Origin: Fidelibacterota bacterium | GTDB taxonomy: Bacteria > Fidelibacterota > Marinisomatia > SCGC-AAA003-L08 > TS1B11 | Direction of reading: 5' to 3' | NCBI GenBank assembly: GCA_020354025.1 | Contig: CP070638.1 | Span: 1,130,250 to 1,194,249 of the forward strand | DNA: 64,000 bases | Notes under the pieces: model-generated | The model's input: the letters and a program-made list of their open reading frames with translations, nothing else | The model's database searches: none | Told to the model about the DNA's origin: nothing | Translations under genes and position numbers: made by a program | Part shown: positions 9,020-33,330 of the stretch, piece after piece | How positions within the stretch are numbered: position 1 is the stretch's first letter | How the letters are laid out: each line of letters starts with the position of its first letter

Positions 9020-9481
9020 TCAGGAGAATACTTCATCAGAAATGGCATCCATTTCATCCTGCTGGTCGGCGAACTGGTTATCGGATTCATCGAGCCGCTC
9101 CGGGTTCCAGATTTCGATATGATCGAGCATACCCACGATCTCTATGCCCTTCTCAATGCCGGCATAATTAATCAGCTCAGCGGGTAGTGCAACCCGGCCT
9201 TGTTGGTCGTACTGCACAGCTTCAGCGTAGCGCACAAAGTTCCTAGTATAGTGTCGGTGGAGTGCGCGTCTTTTGTTCAGCCTGATCAATTTTTCAACAA
9301 TCTGTTTCCAGACCTCCACCGGATATAGAACAATACAGGAATCAGCCCCCCTAGTAGCCACAAATGTGCGGTCGTTGGCCGGATTCAGGGCCTTCCGCAT
9401 TTTAGCCGGAATATTAGCCCGACCTTTGGCATCAAGGGTGTAACTGTAGCTGCCAGTAAATGAACCGTCGGTTGAATTCAA
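9020..9481 (-). CDS. mraZ: Transcriptional regulator MraZ
   Basis: 153 aa with the two DxxGR motifs (LDAKGRANIPA, YDQQGRVALPA) that characterise MraZ; first gene of the dcw cluster. Confidence 0.95.
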   Translation of the reverse strand: MNSTDGSFTGSYSYTLDAKGRANIPAKMRKALNPANDRTFVATRGADSCIVLYPVEVWKQIVEKLIRLNKRRALHRHYTRNFVRYAEAVQYDQQGRVALPAELINYAGIEKGIEIVGMLDHIEIWNPERLDESDNQFADQQDEMDAISDEVFS

Positions 9482-9569
9482 TTCGCTATCCTGCTTGCTA
9501 GGATGAGTCTCCAGATTCCGCTATACAATCGAGCACCAGTCAGTAAGGTGCGCAATTTCAGGGATATCT

Positions 9570-9606
9570 ACCCACCTTTACCCACAAACATATTAGTTTT
9601 ACCCGC
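9570..9606 (-). promoter_or_regulatory. Candidate MraZ operator: three GYGGGT repeats upstream of mraZ
   Basis: The plus strand reads ACCCAC (9570-9575), ACCCAC (9580-9585) and ACCCGC (9601-9606). On the mraZ strand these are GTGGGT, GTGGGT and GCGGGT, spaced 10 and 21 bp and lying 90-125 nt upstream of the mraZ ATG. They resemble the phased TGGGN repeats bound by E. coli MraZ. Confidence 0.35.
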
Positions 9607-9881
9607 CAATGTCAAGGGAAATAGGAAATAAAAATTGTCCACCAGTTTTGCCGTTTGAAGTGCGATTCTTTCATCTTTGGAGGCTTTTTTTCAGCAAGAA
9701 AGATTCACATAAGGGAAAAAACAATCCCGCCACTTTTAGATGATCTCTTACTTCGTTTAGATTGACTTGCCAATAGCCGTAATAACGGATTTGGGAGTAA
9801 AACTCGTTGGAACAATATTGAAATTGCGGTCGACTTTTTTTGGTTGTGCATAACCTACATTTCCAATTAAGTTATTACGAA

Positions 9882-9932
9882 ATGATTTTGCAGCACGTCC
9901 ATCATCACCATTTTCATGGACTCGATACCTAA
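9882..9932 (+). CDS. Histidine-rich leader peptide (his operon attenuator mini-ORF), MILQHVHHHHFHGLDT
   Basis: ATG at 9882, TAA at 9930-9932. Six of 16 codons are His (CAC/CAT) and four are consecutive. It lies 109 nt upstream of the hisG ATG and is followed by a terminator hairpin. I saw no clear SD sequence. Confidence 0.6.
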   Translation: MILQHVHHHHFHGLDT

Positions 9933-9987
9933 GGGGAATTCGAGGGGTTCGTGCTGTAAATAAATCGCAGCGTAAAAAGTTTGACTG

Positions 9988-10016
9988 AAAACCCTCGGAA
10001 GCCCCGAGGGTTTTTA
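9988..10016 (+). terminator. Intrinsic terminator / attenuator hairpin between the leader ORF and hisG
   Basis: The stem CCCTCGG (9992-9998) pairs with CCGAGGG (10004-10010), has a 5-nt loop, is extended by AAAA/TTTT and is followed by TTTTTATTT. It ends about 8 nt before the hisG RBS AGGAGG (10024-10029). Confidence 0.6.
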
Positions 10017-10040
10017 TTTATACAGGAGGATATTATCACG

Positions 10041-10916
10041 ATGGCAAACATTCTGAAGCTGGGATTGCCCAAGGGCTCGTTACAGGAGAGCACCCTGGCC
10101 ATTTTTAAAAAAGCCGGGTGGAACTTCATCGTCTCCAACCGTACCTACACTCCCTACTGTGACGATCCCGAGCTGGAGTCCCTGCTCATTCGTGCCCAGG
10201 AGATAGCCCGGTACGTGGAGCAGGGGATCTTCGACGTGGGCATCACCGGCAAGGATTGGATTCTGGAGAATGACGCCGATATTGAGGAGGTCTGTGAACT
10301 GGTGTACGCCAAGTCCTCCCTGCGGCCGGTGCAGTGGGTGCTGGCGGTGCCCGAGGAATCACCGGTGAAGTCGGTAAAGGACCTGGAGGGCAGGCACATC
10401 AGTACCGAGGTAGTGAACCTCACCCGGCAGTATCTGGTCAGACAAGGGGTAAAAGCGGAAGTGGAATTTTCCTGGGGAGCCACGGAAGCCAAGCCCCGGC
10501 TGCTTTCGGACGCTATTGTCGAGGTAACCGAGACCGGCTCCTCCCTGCGGGCCAATAAGCTGCGTATTGTGGATACTATATTGAACTCCACTACCCGATT
10601 TATCGCCAACAGGGAGGCCTACCAGGATCCGTGGAAGCGGCAGAAGATTGACAACATGGCCCGTCTCCTGCAGAGCGGCATCATGGCAACAGGTCACGTG
10701 GGGCTGAAAATGAATGTCTCCAGTGAGAAACTGGACCGGATCATGGCCATGCTGCCGGCGATGAAAACCCCGACTGTGAGCCAGCTTTATAATGGTTCCG
10801 GGGCGGCGGTGGAGGTGATCGTTGAAGAGAAAACGGTACGGGAAATTATTCCCACCCTCATCCAGGCCGGTGCTACTGACATCATCGAGTACCCGCTTAA
10901 CAAGGTGATTCCGTAG
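10041..10916 (+). CDS. hisG: ATP phosphoribosyltransferase, long form (with C-terminal regulatory domain)
   Basis: N-terminus [16 protein letters not shown] is typical of HisG. At 291 aa it is the long form, and no hisZ is nearby. I chose the ATG at 10041 because AGGAGG lies 11 nt upstream. The track ORF starts 60 nt earlier, inside the terminator. Confidence 0.9.
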
Positions 10917-12200
10917 ATGAACATTCTACCTATCATCACCAGCGAGACCCAGTTCAATGAGCGGCTGGAGCGCCGCCAACAAGCCCTGGACGAGACTCGG
11001 ACATCGGTATCGGATATCCTTGCCAGGGTAAAAAAGGAGGGAGACCGGGCCCTGCGCCAGCTGACGGAAAGGTTCGACGGCGTCAGGATTGACGATCTGA
11101 TGGTTCCCGACCAGCAACTGGAGGTGGGCAGAGGTTCCCTTTCAGGACAGATGGAAACGACCATCCTCGCCGCCGCCGCCAACATCCGAACCTTCCATGA
11201 GCGCCAGATTCCGACAGGCTTCGCCATTACCCGGAAAGACGGCATGGAGGCTGCCTGGCGCTGGCGGCCGATCCAGCGGGTGGGGGTATACATCCCGGGC
11301 GGCCGGTATCCCCTCCTCTCCACCATACTGATGACGGTCATTCCCGCCCAGGTAGCAGGTGTGGCTGAAATTGTGGTTTGCACTCCGCCTGGCCCCTCCG
11401 GCTATCCTGCTGACGCCATATTGGGAATTTGCGCCCTCCTGGGTATCCGGGAGGTCTATCGTATCGGTGGCGCCCAGGCCATTGCAGCATTGGCGTACGG
11501 CACTGAAACCATCCAGGCCGTAGACAAGATCACCGGTCCGGGCAGCATTTACGTAACCAGCGCGAAGGAAGCGGTATCCAGCCAGGTGGGCATTGATATG
11601 CTGGCGGGCCCCAGCGAGGTAGTGGTGCTGGCCGACAGCACCGCCAATCCCAGGTGGATCGCCAGCGACCTGATCTCCCAGGCCGAACACGATCCCCTGG
11701 CCTGGTCGGTGCTGGTAACCGATAACCACAATCTTGCCCAGGAGGTGAATCGCCACCTTGCTGAACTGCTGAAAGACCTTACAACCCGATCCATCGCCGA
11801 GGCGTCATTGAAGGAGCACGGTTTCATCTTTCTGGGTGAGAACCTGGCGACATGTACAGCGGTGACTAACCGCATAGCGCCGGAGCATCTGTGCTTGCAG
11901 ACAGCCCGGCCGGAAGATATGCTTGAGCGGGTCCGGGCGGGAGCGATCTTCATAGGTGGCGAGACACCCGTTGCGTGGGGGGATTACTGGGCTGGTCCCA
12001 GCCACACCCTTCCAACGGCGGGGCACGCCCGTTTTCAGGGGCCTCTGTCGGTGTATGACTTCCTGGTTCCCTACTCGGTAATCAAGGCTGATGCGCGCAC
12101 TGCCCGGGTCAGCGGAGACAAGGTGAAAGCCCTGGCCGAGCTGGAGGGGCTGGCCGGGCACGCTCTTTCCATTACCCTGCGGGAGGAGAACGATGATTGA
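10917..12200 (+). CDS. hisD: Histidinol dehydrogenase
   Basis: 427 aa with TGPGSIYV and SQAEHD motifs typical of HisD. Its ATG directly abuts the hisG stop. Confidence 0.95.
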   Translation: MNILPIITSETQFNERLERRQQALDETRTSVSDILARVKKEGDRALRQLTERFDGVRIDDLMVPDQQLEVGRGSLSGQMETTILAAAANIRTFHERQIPTGFAITRKDGMEAAWRWRPIQRVGVYIPGGRYPLLSTILMTVIPAQVAGVAEIVVCTPPGPSGYPADAILGICALLGIREVYRIGGAQAIAALAYGTETIQAVDKITGPGSIYVTSAKEAVSSQVGIDMLAGPSEVVVLADSTANPRWIASDLISQAEHDPLAWSVLVTDNHNLAQEVNRHLAELLKDLTTRSIAEASLKEHGFIFLGENLATCTAVTNRIAPEHLCLQTARPEDMLERVRAGAIFIGGETPVAWGDYWAGPSHTLPTAGHARFQGPLSVYDFLVPYSVIKADARTARVSGDKVKALAELEGLAGHALSITLREENDD

Positions 12201-13257
12201 CCTCCCCTTGAAGCAGTGGATCAAGCCCGAGGTTTTGGCCCAGCCGGCTTACGAGGTCAAGACCGCCGATTATCGTATAAAACTGAACCAGAACGAAAGC
12301 CCCAGCGACTGGCCCCGGGAGCTTAAGGCAGAGGTACTGAAGCGCCTGAAAGAAGCTGCCTGGAACCGTTATCCCCTGATGATCCATCAAAGGCTGAAGG
12401 AGAAGCTGGCAAATGGTCTGGCGGTTTCGCCGGAGCAGGTGGTGATTGGTAAGGGTTCCAACGAGGTCTTACAAGCCCTGGCCCATATCACGCTTCGTCC
12501 CGGGGATACCCTGTGCACCCTCTCCCCCACCTTCGCCGTCTACCGGCTGCTGGGTGAGCAGCAGCAGGCGCTGGTATCCACATCCCCCCTCACCGTCGAC
12601 TTCCAGGTGGATGAGGAGGACCTGCTGGACAGGAGCAAGGAGGCCCGCCTCACGATCCTGAGCAATCCCAATTCGCCCACCGGGAGCCTGCTGCCGATAG
12701 AGCTCATCGGCCAGGTGGTGCGACAGGCTCAGGGACTGGTGGTTGTGGACGAAGCCTACGTCGACTTCTCCGGAGTGAGCGCTCTACCCCTGCTGGAGCA
12801 GTTCTCAAATCTTATTATCACCCGGACTTTTTCAAAGGCTTTTGCCCTGGCCGGTTTCCGGCTGGGTTTTGCCATTATGCATTCCCAACTGGCCCAACAG
12901 GTTCAGAAGGGCCTGCTGCCTTTCAACATCGATACACCCTCGGCGGTAGCGGCGGAAGTGCTGCTCGATCATCGGGAAGTGGTCAAGGAGCGAGCTGCGC
13001 TGACCATCCGGGAAAGGGACCAGCTGATAGCCCGCCTCGGGGACTTACCAGGTGTAACCGTATGGCCATCATGGGCTAACTTCTTTCTCCTGGCCACACC
13101 ACTGGGCGCTCAAAAGACTTTCACCCACCTTGCTAAGACAGGCATCCTGGTGCGGGACGTATCGGATTATCCAGGCTGCGAGAACGTGGTGCGCATCACG
13201 GTGGGCACACCGGAAGAAAACGAGGCCCTGTTCCAGGCTGTGCGAGATCTGCTGTGA
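12193..13257 (+). CDS. hisC: Histidinol-phosphate aminotransferase
   Basis: Class-II aminotransferase PLP-lysine motif TFSKAFALAGFRLG; NPNSPTG motif; 8-nt overlap with hisD. Confidence 0.9.
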   Translation: MIDLPLKQWIKPEVLAQPAYEVKTADYRIKLNQNESPSDWPRELKAEVLKRLKEAAWNRYPLMIHQRLKEKLANGLAVSPEQVVIGKGSNEVLQALAHITLRPGDTLCTLSPTFAVYRLLGEQQQALVSTSPLTVDFQVDEEDLLDRSKEARLTILSNPNSPTGSLLPIELIGQVVRQAQGLVVVDEAYVDFSGVSALPLLEQFSNLIITRTFSKAFALAGFRLGFAIMHSQLAQQVQKGLLPFNIDTPSAVAAEVLLDHREVVKERAALTIRERDQLIARLGDLPGVTVWPSWANFFLLATPLGAQKTFTHLAKTGILVRDVSDYPGCENVVRITVGTPEENEALFQAVRDLL

Positions 13258-14081
13258 TCTACGACGCCGTCATTTTCGATGTGGATGGAGTACTGGTGGA
13301 TGTGCGCCGATCATTTACCGCCGCCGCGGTGGATGCCGCTGCCGCCGCCACCGACTCCCGCCGCTTCACAGAAGATGACGCAAGGCAGTTGAAGTTTATC
13401 CGGGGTTTTAACAACGACTGGCACGTAGCCATTGCGGGCGCTGCCTGGGTCTGTTTCTGTGAGGGCTGGTCTTTTCCCGAATTCGCCCGAGAGTTGGACC
13501 GGTATGGCGGTGGCCTTAAAGGGCTCAGACACGTGGTGGGGAGTGATCTCACCACCGACTTTGAGGCTCACCTGATCCGCCTGGCCCAGGAGGCCTACGG
13601 TGGCACCACGGCCTGCAGGCAGCTGTACGGCATCAAGCCGGCTACTATCCGCCAGCCGGGGCGGTGGCAGGAGGAAGTTCCGCTGTTATCCGCTGAAGAC
13701 GCCGGACGTATAGCATCCAGGGCGGGTATCGTCACCGGACGAAGCCCAGCCGAGATGGAACTGGCCTTTCGCCTGCTCGGCTGGCGGCTGCCGGCTCAGC
13801 AGGTGGCGGTCTCCGATGACCCCGCCCGCGATAAGCCCGACCCGGGCAAGCTGGCTGCTATCCTCGAGTATCTCGGCAGCGAGAAGGCCCTGCTGGCCGG
13901 TGACGGCCGGGATGACCTGGAGCTGGCAGTAAATGCCCGAGCGAGCACCGGGAGGGAGGTGGTTTTCTGCTTCATCGGTAACTCGCCCGCGCCATGGCCG
14001 AATGTCGGGCACAGTTTCCCATCAGTTAATGAAATGCTAAACCATATTGAGGTGATCTATGACAAGTCCCAAACCGATTGA
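13254..14081 (+). CDS. HAD-superfamily (subfamily IA-like) hydrolase embedded in the his operon; candidate histidinol-phosphate phosphatase
   Basis: HAD motif I FDVDGVL, motif II IVTGRS, motif III K in DKPDP, motif IV AGDGRDD. The GTG start overlaps the hisC stop (GTGA) and the 3' end overlaps hisB by 23 nt. The function is inferred from context only. Confidence 0.7.
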   Translation: MIYDAVIFDVDGVLVDVRRSFTAAAVDAAAAATDSRRFTEDDARQLKFIRGFNNDWHVAIAGAAWVCFCEGWSFPEFARELDRYGGGLKGLRHVVGSDLTTDFEAHLIRLAQEAYGGTTACRQLYGIKPATIRQPGRWQEEVPLLSAEDAGRIASRAGIVTGRSPAEMELAFRLLGWRLPAQQVAVSDDPARDKPDPGKLAAILEYLGSEKALLAGDGRDDLELAVNARASTGREVVFCFIGNSPAPWPNVGHSFPSVNEMLNHIEVIYDKSQTD

Positions 14082-14646
14082 GATCAAGCGCAAAACCAAC
14101 GAGACGGACATCCGCCTGAAGCTGCTGCTCTGCGGAGAGCGGAAAGTGCAGGTGGAAACCGGTATCGGCTTTTTCGATCACCTGCTTCAGACCCTGGCCT
14201 TCTGGGCTGGATGGGACCTGGAGCTGTCCTGTACGGGTGACCTGCGCGTGGATACTCACCACACTGTGGAAGACGTGGCGCTTGCCCTGGGACAGGCTTT
14301 TACCAAGGCCAGGGAGGATGCCGGAAATATCGAGCGTTTCGGGATAGCCTGGATGCCCATGGGTGAGACTCTATCCCAGGTAGTGGTGGACCTGAGCGGC
14401 CGGCCCTTGTGTGTCTTCAAGGCCGACATCGGCGCCGAACGGGTCGGCACCTTTGAGACTGTCATGACGGGCCACTTTTTCCGCTCCTTCGCGGCTGAGT
14501 CAAAAGTGACCCTCCACGTCCGGACGCTTTATGGAGAAGACCCTCACCATATTATTGAGAGCATGTTCAAAGGTCTGGGCTTAGCTCTGCGACAAGCCCT
14601 GACACCCGGCACTGGTGGCGTGGCCTCTACCAAGGGAGCTTTATGA
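14059..14646 (+). CDS. hisB: Imidazoleglycerol-phosphate dehydratase (monofunctional)
   Basis: 195 aa with the two D/E-x-HH-x-x-E motifs (VDTHHTVED, GEDPHHIIES). It has no N-terminal phosphatase domain. Confidence 0.95.
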   Translation: MTSPKPIEIKRKTNETDIRLKLLLCGERKVQVETGIGFFDHLLQTLAFWAGWDLELSCTGDLRVDTHHTVEDVALALGQAFTKAREDAGNIERFGIAWMPMGETLSQVVVDLSGRPLCVFKADIGAERVGTFETVMTGHFFRSFAAESKVTLHVRTLYGEDPHHIIESMFKGLGLALRQALTPGTGGVASTKGAL

Positions 14647-15239
14647 TCGGTATGATCGACTATGGTGTGGGCAACGTAGGTAGCCTGGGCAACGCCCTGC
14701 GCTACCTGGAGCTGCCCTTTGTCCTGTCCGCCGATCCCGATGAGCTCGACCGCTGCGAGCAGCTTATCTTGCCTGGAGTGGGAGCCTTCGGCCCTGCCAT
14801 AGAGCGGCTGCGCAACTGCAACCTGGACGGATTTCTCCTCGAATGGGCGGCATCGGGGAAACCCCTCCTGGGCATCTGCCTGGGAATGCAGCTGCTCCTG
14901 TCTGCCAGCCGCGAACGGGGTCAATATGATGGCCTGGGACTGATCCCCGGCCAGGTGAGGAAAATCGAGGGAGCACCCAGGGAAGTCCATATGGGATGGA
15001 ACGAGGTAATACCCCGGCGGGAGAACTATCTTGTTCCCCGGTCAGGATACGCCTATTTCGTGCATTCCTACCGGTGTATTCTCGATGATCTCACCATAGT
15101 AATCGCTGACACCAGCTACGGTGGGCTCCTGGCGGCAGCGATACAGAAGGACAACATCCTAGGAGTACAGTTTCACCCGGAGAAATCCCAGGAGTACGGT
15201 CTGGATATCCTGCAAAGGTTTGCCGATGGGAAATTTTAA
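14643..15239 (+). CDS. hisH: Imidazole glycerol phosphate synthase, glutamine amidotransferase subunit
   Basis: Class-I GATase motifs: PGVGAF, nucleophile elbow LGICLGMQLL, QFHPEKS. ATGA overlap with hisB. Confidence 0.95.
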   Translation: MIGMIDYGVGNVGSLGNALRYLELPFVLSADPDELDRCEQLILPGVGAFGPAIERLRNCNLDGFLLEWAASGKPLLGICLGMQLLLSASRERGQYDGLGLIPGQVRKIEGAPREVHMGWNEVIPRRENYLVPRSGYAYFVHSYRCILDDLTIVIADTSYGGLLAAAIQKDNILGVQFHPEKSQEYGLDILQRFADGKF

Positions 15240-15969
15240 GGCAATCCCGGCCATAGACCTGATGGACGGCCGCTGCGTACGTCTGGTCCAAGGGGACTAT
15301 GACCGCAGCACCAAATACCCGCAGGAACCAGTAGAATTGGCCAGGCTGTTCCTAGACGCGGGACTGGACTGGCTCCATGTAGTTGATCTGGACGGGGCTA
15401 GAACGGGCAAGCCGATAGCCCTGGCCACCGTGAAGGCGCTGGCAACCACGGGCATCGGCATCGAGCTGGGCGGTGGCATCCGTACCTCGGACCACATCCA
15501 GCAGGCTCTGAACAGCGGCGCAACTAACGTAATCCTGGGCTCCAGCCTCATGAGCAACCGGGACGATCTGCCCCGGTGGCTGGACCGCTTCCCCGGACAG
15601 CTGGTGGCCGGGGTGGACGCCCGTAAAGACCGGGTTGCGGTGCACGGCTGGCAGGAAACCACCACAGTCCCGGCCTTGGACCTTATCACCCGGCTGGAAG
15701 ACATCGGCTTCCGGCGGGTGATCTACACCGATATAGCCACCGACGGCACCCTGGCGGGGCCGAACCTTGAGGGGCTGCGGGCCGTATCCCGAAGCACCCG
15801 GATGGATGTCACCGCCTCCGGTGGCATAGGCTCAGTAGCGGATATCCGGGCGGTAGCGGATCTGGCAGGACTGGGAGTAACGGGGGTCATTGTGGGTAAA
15901 GCTTTCTACGATGGGAGGATATCACTGGAGGAGTTAGCGACGTGCCTGAGCGGCGGCCAGATGGTCTGA
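15226..15969 (+). CDS. hisA: 1-(5-phosphoribosyl)-5-[(5-phosphoribosylamino)methylideneamino]imidazole-4-carboxamide isomerase
   Basis: AIPAIDLMDGRCVRLVQGDY N-terminus and GGGIR / GVIVGKA motifs of HisA. I used the ATG at 15226; the track ORF begins at the TTG at 15220. Confidence 0.9.
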   Translation: MGNFKAIPAIDLMDGRCVRLVQGDYDRSTKYPQEPVELARLFLDAGLDWLHVVDLDGARTGKPIALATVKALATTGIGIELGGGIRTSDHIQQALNSGATNVILGSSLMSNRDDLPRWLDRFPGQLVAGVDARKDRVAVHGWQETTTVPALDLITRLEDIGFRRVIYTDIATDGTLAGPNLEGLRAVSRSTRMDVTASGGIGSVADIRAVADLAGLGVTGVIVGKAFYDGRISLEELATCLSGGQMV

Positions 15970-16736
15970 CCCGGCGTATTATCCCTTGCCTGGATGTGCA
16001 TGAAGGCCAGGTGGTGAAAGGTGTGAAGTTTGTCAACCTGGTACAGGAAGGCGATCCGGTGGAGCTCGGCGCCCGTTACAGCGATATGGGGGCCGACGAA
16101 CTGGTGTTCCTGGACATCTCCGCGAGCGTTCAGGCCCGCCAGCACGTGCTGGACCTGACCAAACGGGTAGCCCGGGAAGTGTTCATTCCCTTCACCATCG
16201 GCGGGGGCATCCGGGCTCTGGATGACATGGAGGCGTTGTTGACCGCGGGTGCCGACAAGATCGCCCTCAATACCGCCGCATTGATCGATCCCGAAGTCGT
16301 TACCAGTGGTGCCAACCGCTTCGGCTCCCAGTGCATGGTAGTGGCCGTGGACGTGAAACGTACCGCGCCGGGCAGCTGGGAAGTCTTCTCCCACAGCGGC
16401 AGCCGATCCACCGGCCGAGAGGCCGCTGACTGGACCCGCGAGATCGCCGAACGCGGCGCCGGCGAGATCCTGCTCACAAGTATCGACGCCGACGGTACCC
16501 AGGCGGGGGTGGACCTTGAGATCACCCGGCGAGTTAGTGAGACCGTCCCCGTGCCGGTGATCGCCTCGGGCGGTATCGGGCAGCTGAGCCATTTCAAAGA
16601 CGCCGTTGAAAGAGGCAAGGCTGATGCGGTACTGGCTGCCTCGGTTTTTCACCGGGGTATTTTCACGATTGACGAAGTAAAGACCTATCTGCAGCAGGCG
16701 GGAATTCCCGTACGAATCACAGGAGAAACGCAGTGA
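15942..16736 (+). CDS. hisF: Imidazole glycerol phosphate synthase, cyclase subunit
   Basis: [16 protein letters not shown] and ASGGIG motifs typical of HisF. GTG start; overlaps hisA by 28 nt. Confidence 0.95.
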
Positions 16737-17071
16737 CCACCAAAGTCGAAAGTGTCAAGGAGTTGAAATACGATCCAGACGGCCTGATCCCCGCCATCGT
16801 CCAGGATGTGGAGAACGGCGAGGTACTGATGCTGGCGTACATGAGCGTTGATAGCCTGAACATATCGCTCGAGGAAGGGCGCACCTGTTTCTGGTCCCGG
16901 AGCCGCCAGCAGCTCTGGCGCAAGGGCGAGACCAGCGGCCACGTCCAGAGAATCCGGTCCATCACCACCGACTGCGACCGGGATACTCTGCTGGTCAGGG
17001 TGGAGCAGGTCGGTCCCGCTTGCCACACCGGCACCCGCAGCTGCTTCACTAAGCCAGTTAAACAGCTCTAG
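16733..17071 (+). CDS. hisI: Phosphoribosyl-AMP cyclohydrolase (HisI domain only, no HisE domain)
   Basis: 112 aa with the [27 protein letters not shown] motif of PRA-CH. GTGA overlap with hisF. Confidence 0.9.
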
Positions 17072-17397: not shown

Positions 17398-20070
17398 ATG
17401 GACCTTAGCCGCCTCACCCAAAAATCCCAGGAAGCCCTGATGGCGGCCCAAGGACTGGCCGCTCGCCGGGGCCAAGTTGAGGTGGACGTGCTGCACCTGC
17501 TGGGGGCCCTGCTGGAGCAGGAAGACGGCCTGGCCTTTCGGCTATTTCGCAAGGCGGACGTGCCGCTGGACCAGTTCCGTACCGACCTGGAGCAGGAACT
17601 TGATCGCCTGCCTCGGCAGACCGGCGGGGCCAAAGAGCTGGACAAGATCTACGTCACCGCCAACCTGAACAACCTACTGTTAAAGGCCGAGGACGAAGCC
17701 AAACGCCTGAAAGACTCCTACGTGTCAGTAGAGCACCTGGTCCTGGCCATGCTGGATGAGGGCAAGTCAGCTCCAATAGGACGCCTGTTCCAGCAATACG
17801 GCCTCACCAGGGACCGCTTTTTGGAGGCTCTGTCGAACGTGCGGGGCAGTCAGCGGGTGGAAAGCGCCACCCCGGAAGCCACCTATGACGTACTGGAGCG
17901 CTATGGCCGAGATCTGGTGAAAGAAGCCCGCTCGGGTAAAATGGACCCTGTCATCGGGCGGGACAACGAGATCCGGCGGGTAATAAGAATTCTGTCACGC
18001 AAGACCAAGAACAATCCGGTGCTCATGGGCGAGCCGGGTGTGGGTAAGACGGCTATCGTCGAGGGACTGGCCCAGCGCATCGTCAAGGGAGACGTACCGG
18101 ACAGCCTTAAGGAGAAGACCATCTTCGCCCTGGATATGGGTGCCTTGGTCGCGGGAGCCAAGTACCGCGGCGAGTTCGAGGAGCGCTTGAAGGCGGTGTT
18201 GAAGGAAATCAAGGAGTCGGAGGGGCGCATCCTGCTGTTTATTGACGAACTGCATACCGTTGTGGGCGCCGGCCGGGCCGAGGGAGCCGTGGATGCGGGT
18301 AACATGCTTAAGCCGATGCTGGCCCGGGGAGAGCTGCACTGTATCGGTGCCACCACCCTGGATGAATATCGCGAGCACGTCGAGAAGGACGCCGCCCTGG
18401 AGCGCCGCTTCCAGCCGGTGCTGGTCGATCAACCCGGAGTGGAAGACACTATTTCCATTCTGCGGGGGCTGAAGGAACGCTACGAGGTATTTCATGGAGT
18501 AAAAGTCCACGACAGCGCTCTGGTATCAGCGGCGGTACTGTCTCACCGCTACATTTCCGACCGCTTCCTACCCGATAAGGCCATTGACCTGGTGGACGAG
18601 GCGGCGGCCATGGTGCGCACCGAGATCGATTCGCTGCCCGCTGAGCTTGACGAAGTGACCAGGAAGCTGATGCGGCTGGAGATCGAGCAGGCGGCACTAA
18701 AAAAGGAAAAGGATAAGGCTAGTAATGAGCGGTTGAAAGCACTGGGTGCGGAACTGGCGAATCTACAGAGCATCGCCGACAATCTGCGTGTCAAGTGGGA
18801 GGCTGAAAAGGAGGCCATCGCCAAGGTGCAAGCCTTAAGGAAGGAAATTGAACATATCCACCGGGAGATGGAAGCGGCCGAGCGGCAATACGACTTGGAG
18901 AAGGCCGCAGCCCTGCGGCACGGAAAACTGCCTGAAGCCCAAAAGCAACTGCAAGAGGAAGAAACCCGTCTGGCGGGCGAGCAAGGTGCGGACAGGCTTA
19001 TCCGCGAGGAGATCACCGAGGAGGAAATCGCCGAGATCGTGAGCCGGTGGACGGGCATTCCAGTAGCCCGGCTGGTGGAGGGTGAACGGGAGAAGCTGCT
19101 GAAGCTGGACGAGGTATTACACCGGCGGGTCATTGGCCAGGACGAGGCGGTGAAGCTGGTTGCGGACGCAGTGATACGGGCTAGGGCGGGTATAAAAGAC
19201 CCCCGGAGACCCATCGGCTCGTTCATCTTTTTAGGGCCAACCGGTGTGGGCAAGACTGAACTGGCCCGGACCCTAGCCGAGACCCTGTTCGACACCGAAG
19301 AGAATATGGTACGCATCGACATGAGCGAGTACATGGAGCGTCATGCCGTCTCCCGGCTGATTGGTGCACCGCCGGGCTACGTGGGCTACGAGGAAGGCGG
19401 CCAGCTCACCGAGGCGGTGCGGCGGCGGCCTTACTCAGTCATCCTGTTTGACGAGATCGAGAAAGCCCACCATGACGTCTTTAACGTCCTGCTCCAGATC
19501 CTCGACGATGGGCGAGTCACAGACGCGCGGGGCCGCACGGTGGACTTCAAGAACACTGTGATCATCATGACCAGCAACATCGGTGCGCCGCAGCTGCTGG
19601 AGGGCATCACCGAGGACGGCGAGCTGCGCCCCGGTGTACGCGAGAAGGTTACCGGCTTGCTGAGGCAGCATTTCCGGCCCGAGTTCCTCAACCGGGTGGA
19701 CGAGACCGTCCTCTTTACTCCCCTCACACCCGGTGAGATCGCGTCCATCGTGGACCTGCTGGCTGACGACCTGCGCTGGCGGCTGGAAGGTTGGGCTGGA
19801 ACGGGCAGCGGGCCCGGCCTGATCCTGGAGCTCACTGACGAAGCTCGTAAGCACATCGCCCGCAGCAGCTATGATCCCGTATTCGGCGCGCGGCCTTTGA
19901 AGCGCTACCTGCAGCGGGAGCTGGAGACCCGCATCGGGCGGGCCATCGTAGCCGGCGAAGTGCCGGGCGGGGCACGGATCAAGGTGGACGTGAAGGAGGG
20001 CGAACTGGTGGTGGGAGTGGAGCAGCCGGAGCAACCTGAGGCCAGGCTGGAGGAACCGGCAAAGACCTGA
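17398..20070 (+). CDS. clpB: ATP-dependent chaperone / disaggregase ClpB
   Basis: 890 aa; two AAA+ Walker A sites ([18 protein letters not shown]); long coiled-coil middle domain; Clp N-repeat. RBS GAAGGAG lies upstream. Confidence 0.95.
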
Positions 20071-31032: not shown

Positions 31033-33330
31033 TCAGGAAACCCCATCACCCAGCACCTTCCGTACTTCGATAGCAGGCAGGTAGACCTCATCGGCCTGTT
31101 GCCAGATATCCGCCAGGCGGACGAGTGTCGAGCGGGCGGCATAGGCATCGGTAAGTTTCTGAATCTGGTATAGCTCATACAACACGGACGGGTCATTGGG
31201 ATAGACGGCCAGGAGCTGGTTGATAGTAGCCAGGGCCGCCTCGGGATCGCCCAGCTTCCGGTAGCAGCGGGCTATGTACTTCTGCGACATCAACCGTTGG
31301 GGATATCGCGAGAGTGTGGTGATATAGCCCTGGATCGCTTGGCGGTAGTCCCGGTTGTTCTCATGGATCCGGGCCATGATGAGGTCGTAGGGGATATCCA
31401 CCAGGAATTTGTACTCCTGATAGAAAGCCTCCACCTGGGCTACTTCAGCGGCTGAAATGGAACGGTTTTCCTGTTCGATCTTGAATCCCACCTGTAGTAC
31501 CGGCAGGGCACTGCCTAGGGGATCGGGTAGCTGCTGATTCATCCTCGCCAGCAAAATTTCGGCGGAGTCGGCCAGAGTAGTGCGGGCGAACTTATCGAAA
31601 TGGGACAGTCGGAGAAGCACGCTTGGCACCGGTCCGTGCACCTTGCGTTCCAGGGGCATGCTTTCCCGGGCAACGGCCATAGCCTCCCTGATCCGGCCCA
31701 GCGATTCGTAGGTATTCTCCAGGGGTCGCAGGGCCATGAGCCGGACCTCTTCAATCTGGGCAATGTTAGCGGCCTCGCGAGCCCTATCCAGCGCCTCCTG
31801 GTACAGTCCTCGCTGAAAGAGGAGCTCTGCCTGGTGGGCCATCACCCGGGCCGGATTATGCCCCAGAAGCAAGGCCCGGTCATACACCTGTCCCGCGTGG
31901 TCCGTTTGTCCAAGGAGCTGATACACCTCTCCCATTGCTATCAGGACTTCGGTATCACGCGGATTGTTCTTGGCATAGTCTCGGAGACTTACCAGGGCCT
32001 CCTGGAAATCACCCAGCGCGGCATGAACCTCGGCAATGTCCCGCAATACCAGGTCGTTCTCGGGATTCAGGTTCAGGATGATGCGATATTCCTCCAGGGC
32101 ATCAGAGTAAAAGCCGGTGCGGTTATAGAAGCTGGCCAGTCGGCGGTGGGCTATAATATCATCGGGAAAGAGGGATACATCAAGCATCAAGGCCGACAGG
32201 GCTTTTTCCGGTTCATCCTGGTATAAGTAGTACACCTCCTTGATTGCCCCTTGCAGCCGCTCGGGGACCTTATAGATATATCTCATGGCGGCCTTGATAG
32301 CCTTTTCCGACTCCTGCCCCAGGTACAGGCTCACCTGATAGAGATGAAACTGGGCATGAACTAAGGTGGAATCGAGGTTGGTAGCTGCTGTGAGTGACCT
32401 GGCGGCGCCGGGCAGGTTACTGTGTAGATAGTATTGATCCAGACCATCGATGTAATAGGCCAGAGCCTGGGGATTATCGGATGTAAGTGCCGCCACGGGC
32501 AAATCCTCCACCTCGTCGATATGAGTCCTGGAGAGATCAAGGTCCCCCTTGATATCAATGGAAATTCGGTCGATGATGTTCTCCAGGTCCTCCCCCTCGT
32601 AGCGATGTTTGGCCAGCAAGCGGCCTCCCCTCGTAAGATAGAGACGGGTTTCAACATCGTAGGGCTTGATGGAGTGGACGCTCCCTTCAAGAAAGTGGGT
32701 CAGGTGGAATCTGCGGGCGAGCTCGCGCATGAGGGCCAGGGGAGCATCGCCACCTTCAGCACCGGCCTCCTTCATGGCACGACTCATCTGATAAGGATTA
32801 CGGTTATCAAAGAATAGATCCTGGATGAGATCCAGGTAGATCCCCTCAGGCAGCCAGTGTCCCACCCATTCGGCATCTGGGTCGCCCGTTTCGTTAGCAA
32901 AGAAAAACAGGGCAACCTGTCGACGGAAGTCAGCCTTAGGAACCACCCGTTCGACCCGGGCACCGGTTTCGTCCTCCGCCGTCACCACTAGCGTGGTTGC
33001 GCCCAGGTCCTCTCCTCCAAAAAAAATCAGGATCAAACCAATGGTCAGCATCACATTCACCGGCACCACCACCTTTTCCGCAATGGTCCACTGGTCTTTA
33101 CCCGGTTTACCGTGGGTATAAACCAGAACCAGTACCGAAGGGATCATTGCCCCCAGCGCCAGGAGAACCAGGTCAATGAGATATGGGGAGAGAGCGTAGC
33201 GGTCGACGAGAAAACCAAGAAATTCTAAGGCCACCCAGGAGGCACCCATATAGAGCCCCACCAGCTGGATCACCCGCCGCTCTTTCAGCTCCCGCCAGAG
33301 ACTTTTCCTTAGCTGTAGCTGTTCACTCAC
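31033..33330 (-). CDS. Membrane-anchored tetratricopeptide (TPR) repeat protein
   Basis: 765 aa; N-terminal ~110 aa contains 3 predicted TM helices; multiple TPR-like repeats in the C-terminal half (e.g. ALGDFQEALVSLRDYAKNNP). Function unknown. Confidence 0.6.
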   Translation of the reverse strand: MSEQLQLRKSLWRELKERRVIQLVGLYMGASWVALEFLGFLVDRYALSPYLIDLVLLALGAMIPSVLVLVYTHGKPGKDQWTIAEKVVVPVNVMLTIGLILIFFGGEDLGATTLVVTAEDETGARVERVVPKADFRRQVALFFFANETGDPDAEWVGHWLPEGIYLDLIQDLFFDNRNPYQMSRAMKEAGAEGGDAPLALMRELARRFHLTHFLEGSVHSIKPYDVETRLYLTRGGRLLAKHRYEGEDLENIIDRISIDIKGDLDLSRTHIDEVEDLPVAALTSDNPQALAYYIDGLDQYYLHSNLPGAARSLTAATNLDSTLVHAQFHLYQVSLYLGQESEKAIKAAMRYIYKVPERLQGAIKEVYYLYQDEPEKALSALMLDVSLFPDDIIAHRRLASFYNRTGFYSDALEEYRIILNLNPENDLVLRDIAEVHAALGDFQEALVSLRDYAKNNPRDTEVLIAMGEVYQLLGQTDHAGQVYDRALLLGHNPARVMAHQAELLFQRGLYQEALDRAREAANIAQIEEVRLMALRPLENTYESLGRIREAMAVARESMPLERKVHGPVPSVLLRLSHFDKFARTTLADSAEILLARMNQQLPDPLGSALPVLQVGFKIEQENRSISAAEVAQVEAFYQEYKFLVDIPYDLIMARIHENNRDYRQAIQGYITTLSRYPQRLMSQKYIARCYRKLGDPEAALATINQLLAVYPNDPSVLYELYQIQKLTDAYAARSTLVRLADIWQQADEVYLPAIEVRKVLGDGVS

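Follow-up and report, generated by a model that had tools for sequence, protein, structure and literature searches.

A predicted ribosome-mediated attenuator upstream of the histidine operon in Fidelibacterota

Does the short, histidine-rich reading frame in front of hisG in a Fidelibacterota genome control transcription of the histidine operon, and does it do so by the logic of the enterobacterial his leader? We studied this in a 64,000-nucleotide stretch of contig CP070638.1 (GenBank assembly GCA_020354025.1, positions 1,130,250 to 1,194,249), hereafter the window, whose own coordinates are used throughout. A first-pass annotation made from the letters alone had proposed a leader peptide with mutually exclusive hairpins at 9882–10040. 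We found the elements of such a system, their conservation in related genomes, covariation in a long-range helix (H1) and in the terminator, and a switch between folds in silico. We put at roughly 85% the probability that the element governs the his operon by ribosome-mediated attenuation of transcription at a leader peptide, with the supply of His-tRNA as the signal.

The leader reading frame and its conservation upstream of hisG

The features of the locus are listed below in the order of transcription; the open reading frame is abbreviated ORF and the minimum free energy fold MFE.

9835–9873 (+), inferred promoter: T-tract 9835–9841, –35-like TTGTGC 9844–9849, 18-nt spacer, –10-like TAAGTT 9868–9873
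9882–9932 (+), leader-peptide ORF (hisL-like): ATG 9882, TAA 9930–9932, encoding MILQHVHHHHFHGLDT, 16 codons
9887–9897 (+), 5' arm of the long-range helix H1 (region 1a), over leader codons 2–6, in the MFE fold
9894–9917 (+), putative regulatory His-codon run, CAC GUC CAU CAU CAC CAU UUU CAU, read from the sequence
9921–9925 (+), 5' arm of helix P2 (region 1b), CUCGA, pairing with UCGAG 9940–9944 at the start of the antiterminator arm
9939–9946 (+), region 2, UUCGAGGG, 5' arm of the antiterminator in constrained folds; 9940–9944 alternatively in P2
9950–9960 (+), 3' arm of H1, ending in the in-frame TAA 9957–9959, the stop used by most relatives
9986–10019 (+), intrinsic terminator: 5' arm 9986–9998, loop 9999–10003, 3' arm 10004–10016 (region 4), U-run 10011–10019
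10024–10029 (+), hisG Shine–Dalgarno AGGAGG, outside the terminator stem; a purine-rich Shine–Dalgarno is kept in relatives
10041–17071 (+), the presumably regulated operon hisG, hisD, hisC, HAD-family hydrolase, hisB, hisH, hisA, hisF, hisI, assigned with NCBIfam

The leader codons are ATG ATT TTG CAG CAC GTC CAT CAT CAC CAT TTT CAT GGA CTC GAT ACC TAA. Six of the 16 specify His (at 9894, 9900, 9903, 9906, 9909 and 9915), and on re-reading the sequence we recovered the 16-codon frame with its six His codons exactly where the first-pass annotation had placed it. Six-frame translation of the window contains just seven stretches with at least five His per 12 codons, and the leader is the sole one opening with an ATG in intergenic DNA. 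An off-frame His-rich stretch at 33034–33070 (QHHIHRHHH, + frame) was judged to have arisen by chance, since it is antisense within a 765-aa gene (31033–33330, minus strand) and has no start codon.

Scanning one genome per species with HisG, we obtained nine loci at 73–90% identity; those with labels belong to Fidelibacterota, Candidatus Neomarinimicrobiota or the "FCB group," and five are tagged "uncultured bacterium." A metagenome scan with HisG contributed seven further close loci, giving 16 related Fidelibacterota loci. Judged by HisG, the host falls within Fidelibacterota (FCB group; Marinimicrobia), which agrees with the first-pass impression that the surroundings are not enterobacterial. 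A search of relatives for the mini-ORF and terminator, which had been proposed as a check, was equally favorable: all 16 other Fidelibacterota hisG loci that we recovered carry a His-rich mini-ORF, a GC-rich hairpin and a U-run 20–30 nt before hisG. The 43 other-phylum hisG loci scanned (L013–L055) serve as an internal negative control, and none contains a comparable element. The gene upstream of the leader in the window is mraZ (9020–9481, minus strand), an arrangement confined to the nearest relatives; at other Fidelibacterota loci the neighbors are pirin-like, AsnC/Lrp-like regulator or membrane-protein genes (labels from translations judged by eye). Because these neighbors differ between loci, the element belongs to hisG and not to the upstream gene.

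The ATG and the His run are kept in all 17 leaders, the relatives having three to eight His codons in the same place. CAU and CAC are swapped freely between relatives while His itself is retained. Past the His run, conservation holds for the nucleotides and is lost for the reading frame: L003 reads ...GLDPIGVFEEVVL, whereas in L004, L005 and L085 this same stretch is read one base off as ...GLVPTGNSGKSCCS and ends at a neighboring UAG. These patterns argue that selection maintains the RNA and its His codons and is indifferent to the peptide. Leader ORFs are 16 to 26 codons long. Those of the window and its nearest relatives (L081, L002, L083 and L088) already stop at codon 17 or 18, whereas most others cross region 2 and end where the H1 3' arm does, after 23–26 codons. 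The stop of this longer frame is still in frame in the window (TAA 9957–9959); the longer frame is ancestral and the clade of the window has gained the early stop, which shows that the leader can do without its distal part as coding sequence.

Lined up on the leader ATG, the 17 upstream regions share a T-tract, TTGnnn, a 17- to 18-nt spacer and TAAGTT, TAATAT or TAAACT. In 12 of the 17 sequences, 8 nt separate the end of the –10 element from the ATG, and in the rest 7–10 nt. The leader promoter is predicted from this positional conservation. None of the 17 sequences has a Shine–Dalgarno before the leader ATG, while hisG has one in all. Given this lack and the ~8-nt distance, transcription probably starts at or within ~2 nt of ATG 9882, so that ribosomes would probably begin the leader peptide on an mRNA that is leaderless or nearly so.

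Competing base pairings, covariation and the in silico switch

The RNA of 9870–10045 was predicted to fold at –54.9 kcal/mol (z = –4.06), and none of 200 shuffled sequences was as stable. The helix 9888–9897:9950–9959, noticed by eye in the first-pass annotation, proved to be part of the MFE fold, together with the terminator. The competing pairing of 9941–9949 with 9990–9997 was likewise real, its core being better given as 9939–9946 (UUCGAGGG) with 9992–9999 (CCCUCGGA, region 3), a duplex of –14.1 kcal/mol. The terminator stem (9986–10016) has 13 bp at –19.3 kcal/mol, followed by UUUUUAUUU. Its core pairs CCCTCGG (9992–9998) with CCGAGGG (10004–10010), the 5' arm CCCUCGG being the core of region 3, and is lengthened by AAAA (9988–9991) with TTTT (10011–10014), leading into the run TTTTTATTT (10011–10019); all coordinates previously given for this hairpin and for the ribosome-binding site at 10024–10029 checked out. 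Three features go beyond the first-pass annotation: the P2 helix locking the antiterminator arm, the conserved promoter abutting the ATG, and the ancestral longer frame. By the computed energies, H1 with P2 (–26.9 kcal/mol), the antiterminator region (–20.9 kcal/mol) and the terminator are balanced.

Alignment of 16 leaders with MAFFT and RNAalifold recovered the terminator as the only structure; H1 was missed because the divergent sequences were misaligned there. A covariance model, R1, was built from 11 well-aligned sequences and the "off" structure, describing a motif of ~140 nt. Searching 60 sources with R1 gave one match per Fidelibacterota locus, 17 in total with scores of 31–157 bits. 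The other-phylum loci searched had no match, and apart from the 17 sites R1 picked up just reverse-strand echoes of the terminator.

Covariation was counted on the 17 R1 matches re-aligned to R1. Standard pairs filled 90.9% of the cells in comparison with 83.0% in shuffles, and 20 pairs showed changes on both sides in comparison with 8.2 in shuffles, a number reached by none of 500 shuffles; when the 3' partner was slid by one to three columns as a control, 3–8 pairs had both-side changes. Compensatory changes were found at nine of the 11 pairs of H1 (9887–9897:9950–9960) and at six of the 11 modeled pairs of the terminator, and so the compensatory substitutions that the first-pass annotation had named as a check are present both in its "1:2" helix and in the terminator. 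In H1 they can be followed by eye: the helix is GCAGCACG:CGUGCUGU in the window, AAGCGGC:GCCGCUU in L086, ACACAGCG:CGCUGUGU in L009 and CGCCGAC:GUCGGCG in L007. P2 (9921–9925:9940–9944) is paired in 97% of cells, with mostly wobble changes and one both-side change. A hairpin 9952–9957:9967–9972, suggested by the Rfam alignment and resembling the C:D pairing of hisL, was rejected as a family feature, not being conserved outside the clade of the window.

We then folded the nascent transcript 9882–10003, which ends before the terminator 3' arm, with a ribosome footprint of 29 nt. As a measure of the switch, we counted the core bases 9992–9998 paired to positions at or below 9965, leaving out a local 4-bp helix (9985–9988:9995–9998). 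Without a ribosome, H1 and P2 formed and none of the seven core bases paired with the leader. With the A site on the His codon at 9900, 9909 or 9915, all seven paired with 9939–9946, and with the ribosome at the stop codon 9930 the count returned to 0/7. The full pattern (free, stalled and at stop) appeared in only 7 of 1,000 dinucleotide-preserving shuffles of 9882–9985, and most relatives switch likewise in constrained folds. Folding with and without a ribosome on the His codons had been suggested as a check of competing structures; these exist, and 9992–9998 is captured only when the ribosome is stalled. The 1:2 / 2:3 / 3:4 logic first proposed for the site is thus reproduced by the nascent-transcript folds and by the covariation of H1 and the terminator.

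The mechanism we propose involves two folds. In the "off" fold, H1 and P2 would enclose the His codons and lock region 2 (9939–9946); in the "on" fold, region 2 would pair with region 3 (9992–9999), the terminator's 5' arm. A shortage of His-tRNA would stall the ribosome on 9894–9917 with its footprint over the 5' arms of H1 and P2. A ribosome anywhere in the His run would cover at least one region-1 arm and usually both, releasing region 2, which would capture region 3 once that is made; no terminator would form and the polymerase would read into hisG. When His-tRNA is plentiful, the ribosome would reach the stop, which is UAA 9930 here and lies at the end of the H1 3' arm in most relatives. 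It would then sit on region 2, or H1 and P2 would re-form behind it, and in the relatives with a long ORF it would translate straight through region 2. In either case region 3 would be left free, the 9986–10016 hairpin would form, and transcription would end in the U-run at ~10016–10019, before the hisG Shine–Dalgarno. Since that Shine–Dalgarno is outside the terminator stem, control would be exerted on transcription and not on access to the ribosome-binding site. The architectural twist is that "region 1" would be split into two arms flanking the His codons, the 5' arm of H1 over codons 2–6 and that of P2 after the run. The locus combines a short ORF of cognate codons, a terminator before the first gene, an overlapping antiterminator and, in silico, a fold that depends on ribosome position, as expected of this mechanistic class; transcription–translation coupling and a response of the element to histidine are predictions of the model.

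Weighing other explanations

Several observations weigh against attenuation by this switch or narrow its reach. The case is built from sequence and computed folds, and the host comes from an uncultivated lineage. The leader promoter fails a simple sigma-70 consensus scan. The alignment used for the covariation counts was fitted to R1 and favors R1's own structure. The antiterminator helix is without double compensations: its core is present in 13–14 of the 17 sequences with both arms near-invariant, so that the only informative changes, G for A in L004 and U for C in L006, are wobble-compatible. The antiterminator extensions 9948–9951:9986–9989 and 9952–9957:9967–9972 are restricted to the clade of the window. 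When the complete terminator is included, the MFE fold retains it whatever is masked, and as the terminator always persists at equilibrium, control would have to be kinetic and co-transcriptional, as in classical systems. Finally, the free truncated RNA already favors the antiterminator in four relatives (L081, L002, L005 and L006), and the "off" lock is therefore not universal.

The folding of these four relatives is what would be expected of a two-state attenuator lacking a working anti-antiterminator, in which the antiterminator forms by default and is melted only by a ribosome translating through or onto region 2 towards a distal stop. H1 would then have another role, as a polymerase pause hairpin synchronizing the ribosome or as an RNA-stability element. 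The ORF of most relatives does pass region 2 and close together with the H1 3' arm, and the unrelated His leaders of four other contigs (L010–L012 and L089, described below) appear to work in this way. Against such a design, the free RNA of the window and eight relatives forms H1 and P2 and leaves the terminator arm unpaired, H1 covaries strongly and has its 5' arm exactly inside the footprint of the stalled ribosome, and the window ORF stops at 9930, ahead of most of region 2. We consider the two-state design, and with it the other roles for H1, unlikely.

The remaining explanations dispense with ribosome-mediated control. Intergenic DNA often contains short ORFs and hairpins, and a generic promoter and terminator scan called neither the leader promoter nor the leader terminator, as might be expected if a chance mini-ORF lay beside an ordinary terminator or a stabilizing 5' hairpin without any sensing of histidine. 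Such a coincidence is very hard to reconcile with a His run, ATG, helices and terminator kept in 17 distinct sequences, always before hisG whatever the upstream gene, with the absence of the element from the 43 other-phylum hisG loci, and with the rarity of the switch among shuffled sequences. The leader could also encode a functional His-rich small protein, such as a metal-binding peptide, with the hairpin merely its terminator; His-run peptides can bind Ni or Zn, and the ORF is conserved. Yet the peptide is unconserved past the His run, with frames and stops differing over 16–26 codons, the linkage of the element to hisG is strict, and a full terminator would cut the his operon off from its conserved promoter, which makes this idea highly improbable. 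Control in trans, by a His T-box with uncharged tRNA or by an RNA-binding antiterminator or repressor protein, has precedent in the his operons of other phyla, which are under T-boxes or the HisR repressor (PMC9413887). We regard it as scarcely credible here: among the 4,227 Rfam families searched, no T-box or other family was found at the site, in the window or in relatives; the ~140-nt element is too short for a T-box; and such mechanisms make no use of a conserved, translatable His run.

The histidine operon, other His leaders and known attenuators

The hisG gene starts at ATG 10041 and encodes the long form of HisG, ATP phosphoribosyltransferase (NCBIfam TIGR00070, TIGR03455). hisG, hisD, hisC, hisB, hisH, hisA, hisF and hisI all score above the NCBIfam curated cut-offs. 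Between hisC and hisB lies a 275-aa HAD-superfamily hydrolase (13254–14081, +) above the cut-off for the generic HAD-IA model only; since hisB of the window encodes the dehydratase domain only (195 aa), this hydrolase is a plausible candidate, judged from sequence, for a nonorthologous histidinol-phosphate phosphatase. The last his gene (16733–17071, +) encodes the cyclohydrolase HisI only (112 aa), and no domain of HisE (phosphoribosyl-ATP pyrophosphatase) is visible within the operon. The ORF after hisI spans 17398–20070 (890 aa).

On the other side of the leader, a ~350-nt intergenic region (9482–9834) separates the divergent mraZ from the his promoter, and parts of it, such as TACCCGCCAATGTCAAGnGAAATAGGA, are kept in L002, the nearest relative. 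On its minus strand a consensus-like promoter was called (TTGACA-17-TATGTT, 9615–9587), which may be a dcw-cluster promoter with MraZ operator repeats. At L085:700–845, on the minus strand, an AsnC/Lrp-like regulator (MLDQTDKQLIEYLQQDGRQTASELAERVG...) is divergent from the his leader, probably also in L004 and L005; it could provide a second amino-acid-responsive layer of control in the L085 clade.

A different His leader, MTKTLHVFHHPIHHHLRHSPRRGSQVC, was observed in four marine metagenome-assembled genome (MAG) contigs (L010:600–800, L011:20–217, L012:2780–2975 and L089:975–1175), labeled Planctomycetota except for L012, an "uncultured bacterium." Their HisG is 65–66% identical to that of the window, making them the nearest outgroup. 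These leaders have a canonical TTGACA-17-TACAAT promoter, an AGAGG Shine–Dalgarno and a terminator CCCGUAAC...GUUACGGG-U9, and their computed folds suggest a simpler, two-state design with a large antiterminator that overlaps the terminator by ~3 nt and is melted only at the distal stop. Homology with the Fidelibacterota leaders was rejected: R1 finds none of them at E ≤ 1, and the shared GGGGUUCG motif is too short.

We see even odds that the leaders form a Fidelibacterota-specific family of His attenuators, independent of gamma-proteobacterial hisL, leaderless, and with a covarying long-range helix clamping the loop that holds its sensing codons. If true, no leader-peptide attenuator would have been documented earlier in this phylum, most of which is uncultivated, and the family would be direct evidence of transcription–translation coupling in Fidelibacterota, and the "Planctomycetota" leaders would be a second independent invention. 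Should the start also be leaderless, efficient leaderless initiation along with such coupling would be implied in the lineage. The mechanism is textbook, and so nothing here is conceptually new. The finding would nevertheless extend his leader-peptide attenuation to Fidelibacterota (Marinimicrobia/SAR406 relatives), an FCB phylum that has Fidelibacter multiformis as its isolated member and whose gene regulation is essentially unstudied, and it would support a repeated origin of His attenuators in gamma-proteobacteria, several Firmicutes lineages, Fidelibacterota and marine "Planctomycetota." Current Rfam models miss the element; its motif (R1, 17 sequences) could enter RNA family databases, and its annotation would keep the mini-ORF from being overlooked or mis-called in MAGs.

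Among the 4,227 Rfam families, the best at the site in a 1-kb search was RF00514, His_leader (31.3 bits, E = 0.006), a score owed to the His codons and to the GC-rich terminator. It does not reach the gathering threshold of 49 bits, and by Rfam's criterion the element is therefore not a member of RF00514. On 13 related loci (12 Fidelibacterota and L010), RF00514 matches only L002 (32.2 bits), the other 12 having no match at E ≤ 1, and no Rfam family reaches its gathering threshold anywhere in the window. In its description the site does match His_leader, since hisG is preceded by a terminator and by a short ORF that holds a run of His codons. Judged by sequence comparison, the element appears to be a separate RNA family that uses the classical mechanism in a phylum where it has not been catalogued. 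We found no literature linking Marinimicrobia or Fidelibacterota with attenuators, although a prior prediction in a sister FCB phylum is possible; Vitreschak et al., writing in FEMS Microbiol Lett in 2004, reportedly predicted some attenuators in Bacteroidetes/Chlorobi. With RF00514 below threshold and no such literature found, the first-pass description of a poorly documented, nonenterobacterial case stands.

Experiments have demonstrated His attenuators in E. coli and Salmonella, and they are predicted throughout the gamma-proteobacteria. Others have been predicted in the Bacillus cereus group, Peptostreptococcaceae and Erysipelotrichales, where they are lineage-specific, unrelated in sequence and RF00514-negative (PMC9413887, PMC2965389, PMC4833913). 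Like these Firmicutes leaders, the Fidelibacterota element is lineage-specific, lies outside proteobacteria, is RF00514-negative and was found via the logic of leader ORF, terminator and antiterminator. It differs in its phylum and shows no detectable homology to them; some of theirs regulate hisZ or hisS paralogues, and they are not reported to be leaderless. With the histidine T-boxes of Lactococcus, Corynebacterium and others, the element would share terminator read-through before his genes at low charged tRNA-His. The T-box senses by direct tRNA binding and not by translation, however, and RF00230 has no match at E ≤ 10 in 9400–10400, nor does it reach its gathering threshold anywhere else in the window.

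Leaderless leader peptides also occur in Actinobacteria, among them the trp, ilv and leu leaders of Corynebacterium and the Cys-rich upstream ORFs of mycobacteria. In Deinococcus deserti, leaderless starts have been mapped by differential RNA sequencing (dRNA-seq) for 14 predicted leader peptides (PMC4007540). As in those leaders, the ORF here probably begins at or 1–2 nt from the transcription start, has no Shine–Dalgarno and precedes a gene with its own; unlike them, it belongs to a different phylum, and its start is predicted from the conserved –10 element, which ends 8 nt ahead of the ATG.

The competition of anti-antiterminator, antiterminator and terminator is that of trpL, in which a ribosome at the stop likewise covers the start of region 2. 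In contrast to trpL, the codons are His and not Trp, region 1 is split around the regulatory codons, and the sequences are unrelated. Six segments (A:B, C:D and E:F) make up the E. coli his leader, which has the His codons inside segment A and a Shine–Dalgarno in its 5' untranslated region. With enterobacterial hisL (RF00514), the Fidelibacterota element shares a short His-run ORF directly before hisG of a hisGDCBHAFI-type operon, a GC-rich terminator and, in our model, mutually exclusive pairings set by ribosome position. It departs from hisL in its host phylum, in having no leader Shine–Dalgarno and a probably leaderless start, and in placing the His codons in the loop between the 5' arms of H1 and P2 of a nested lock, with no conserved C:D.

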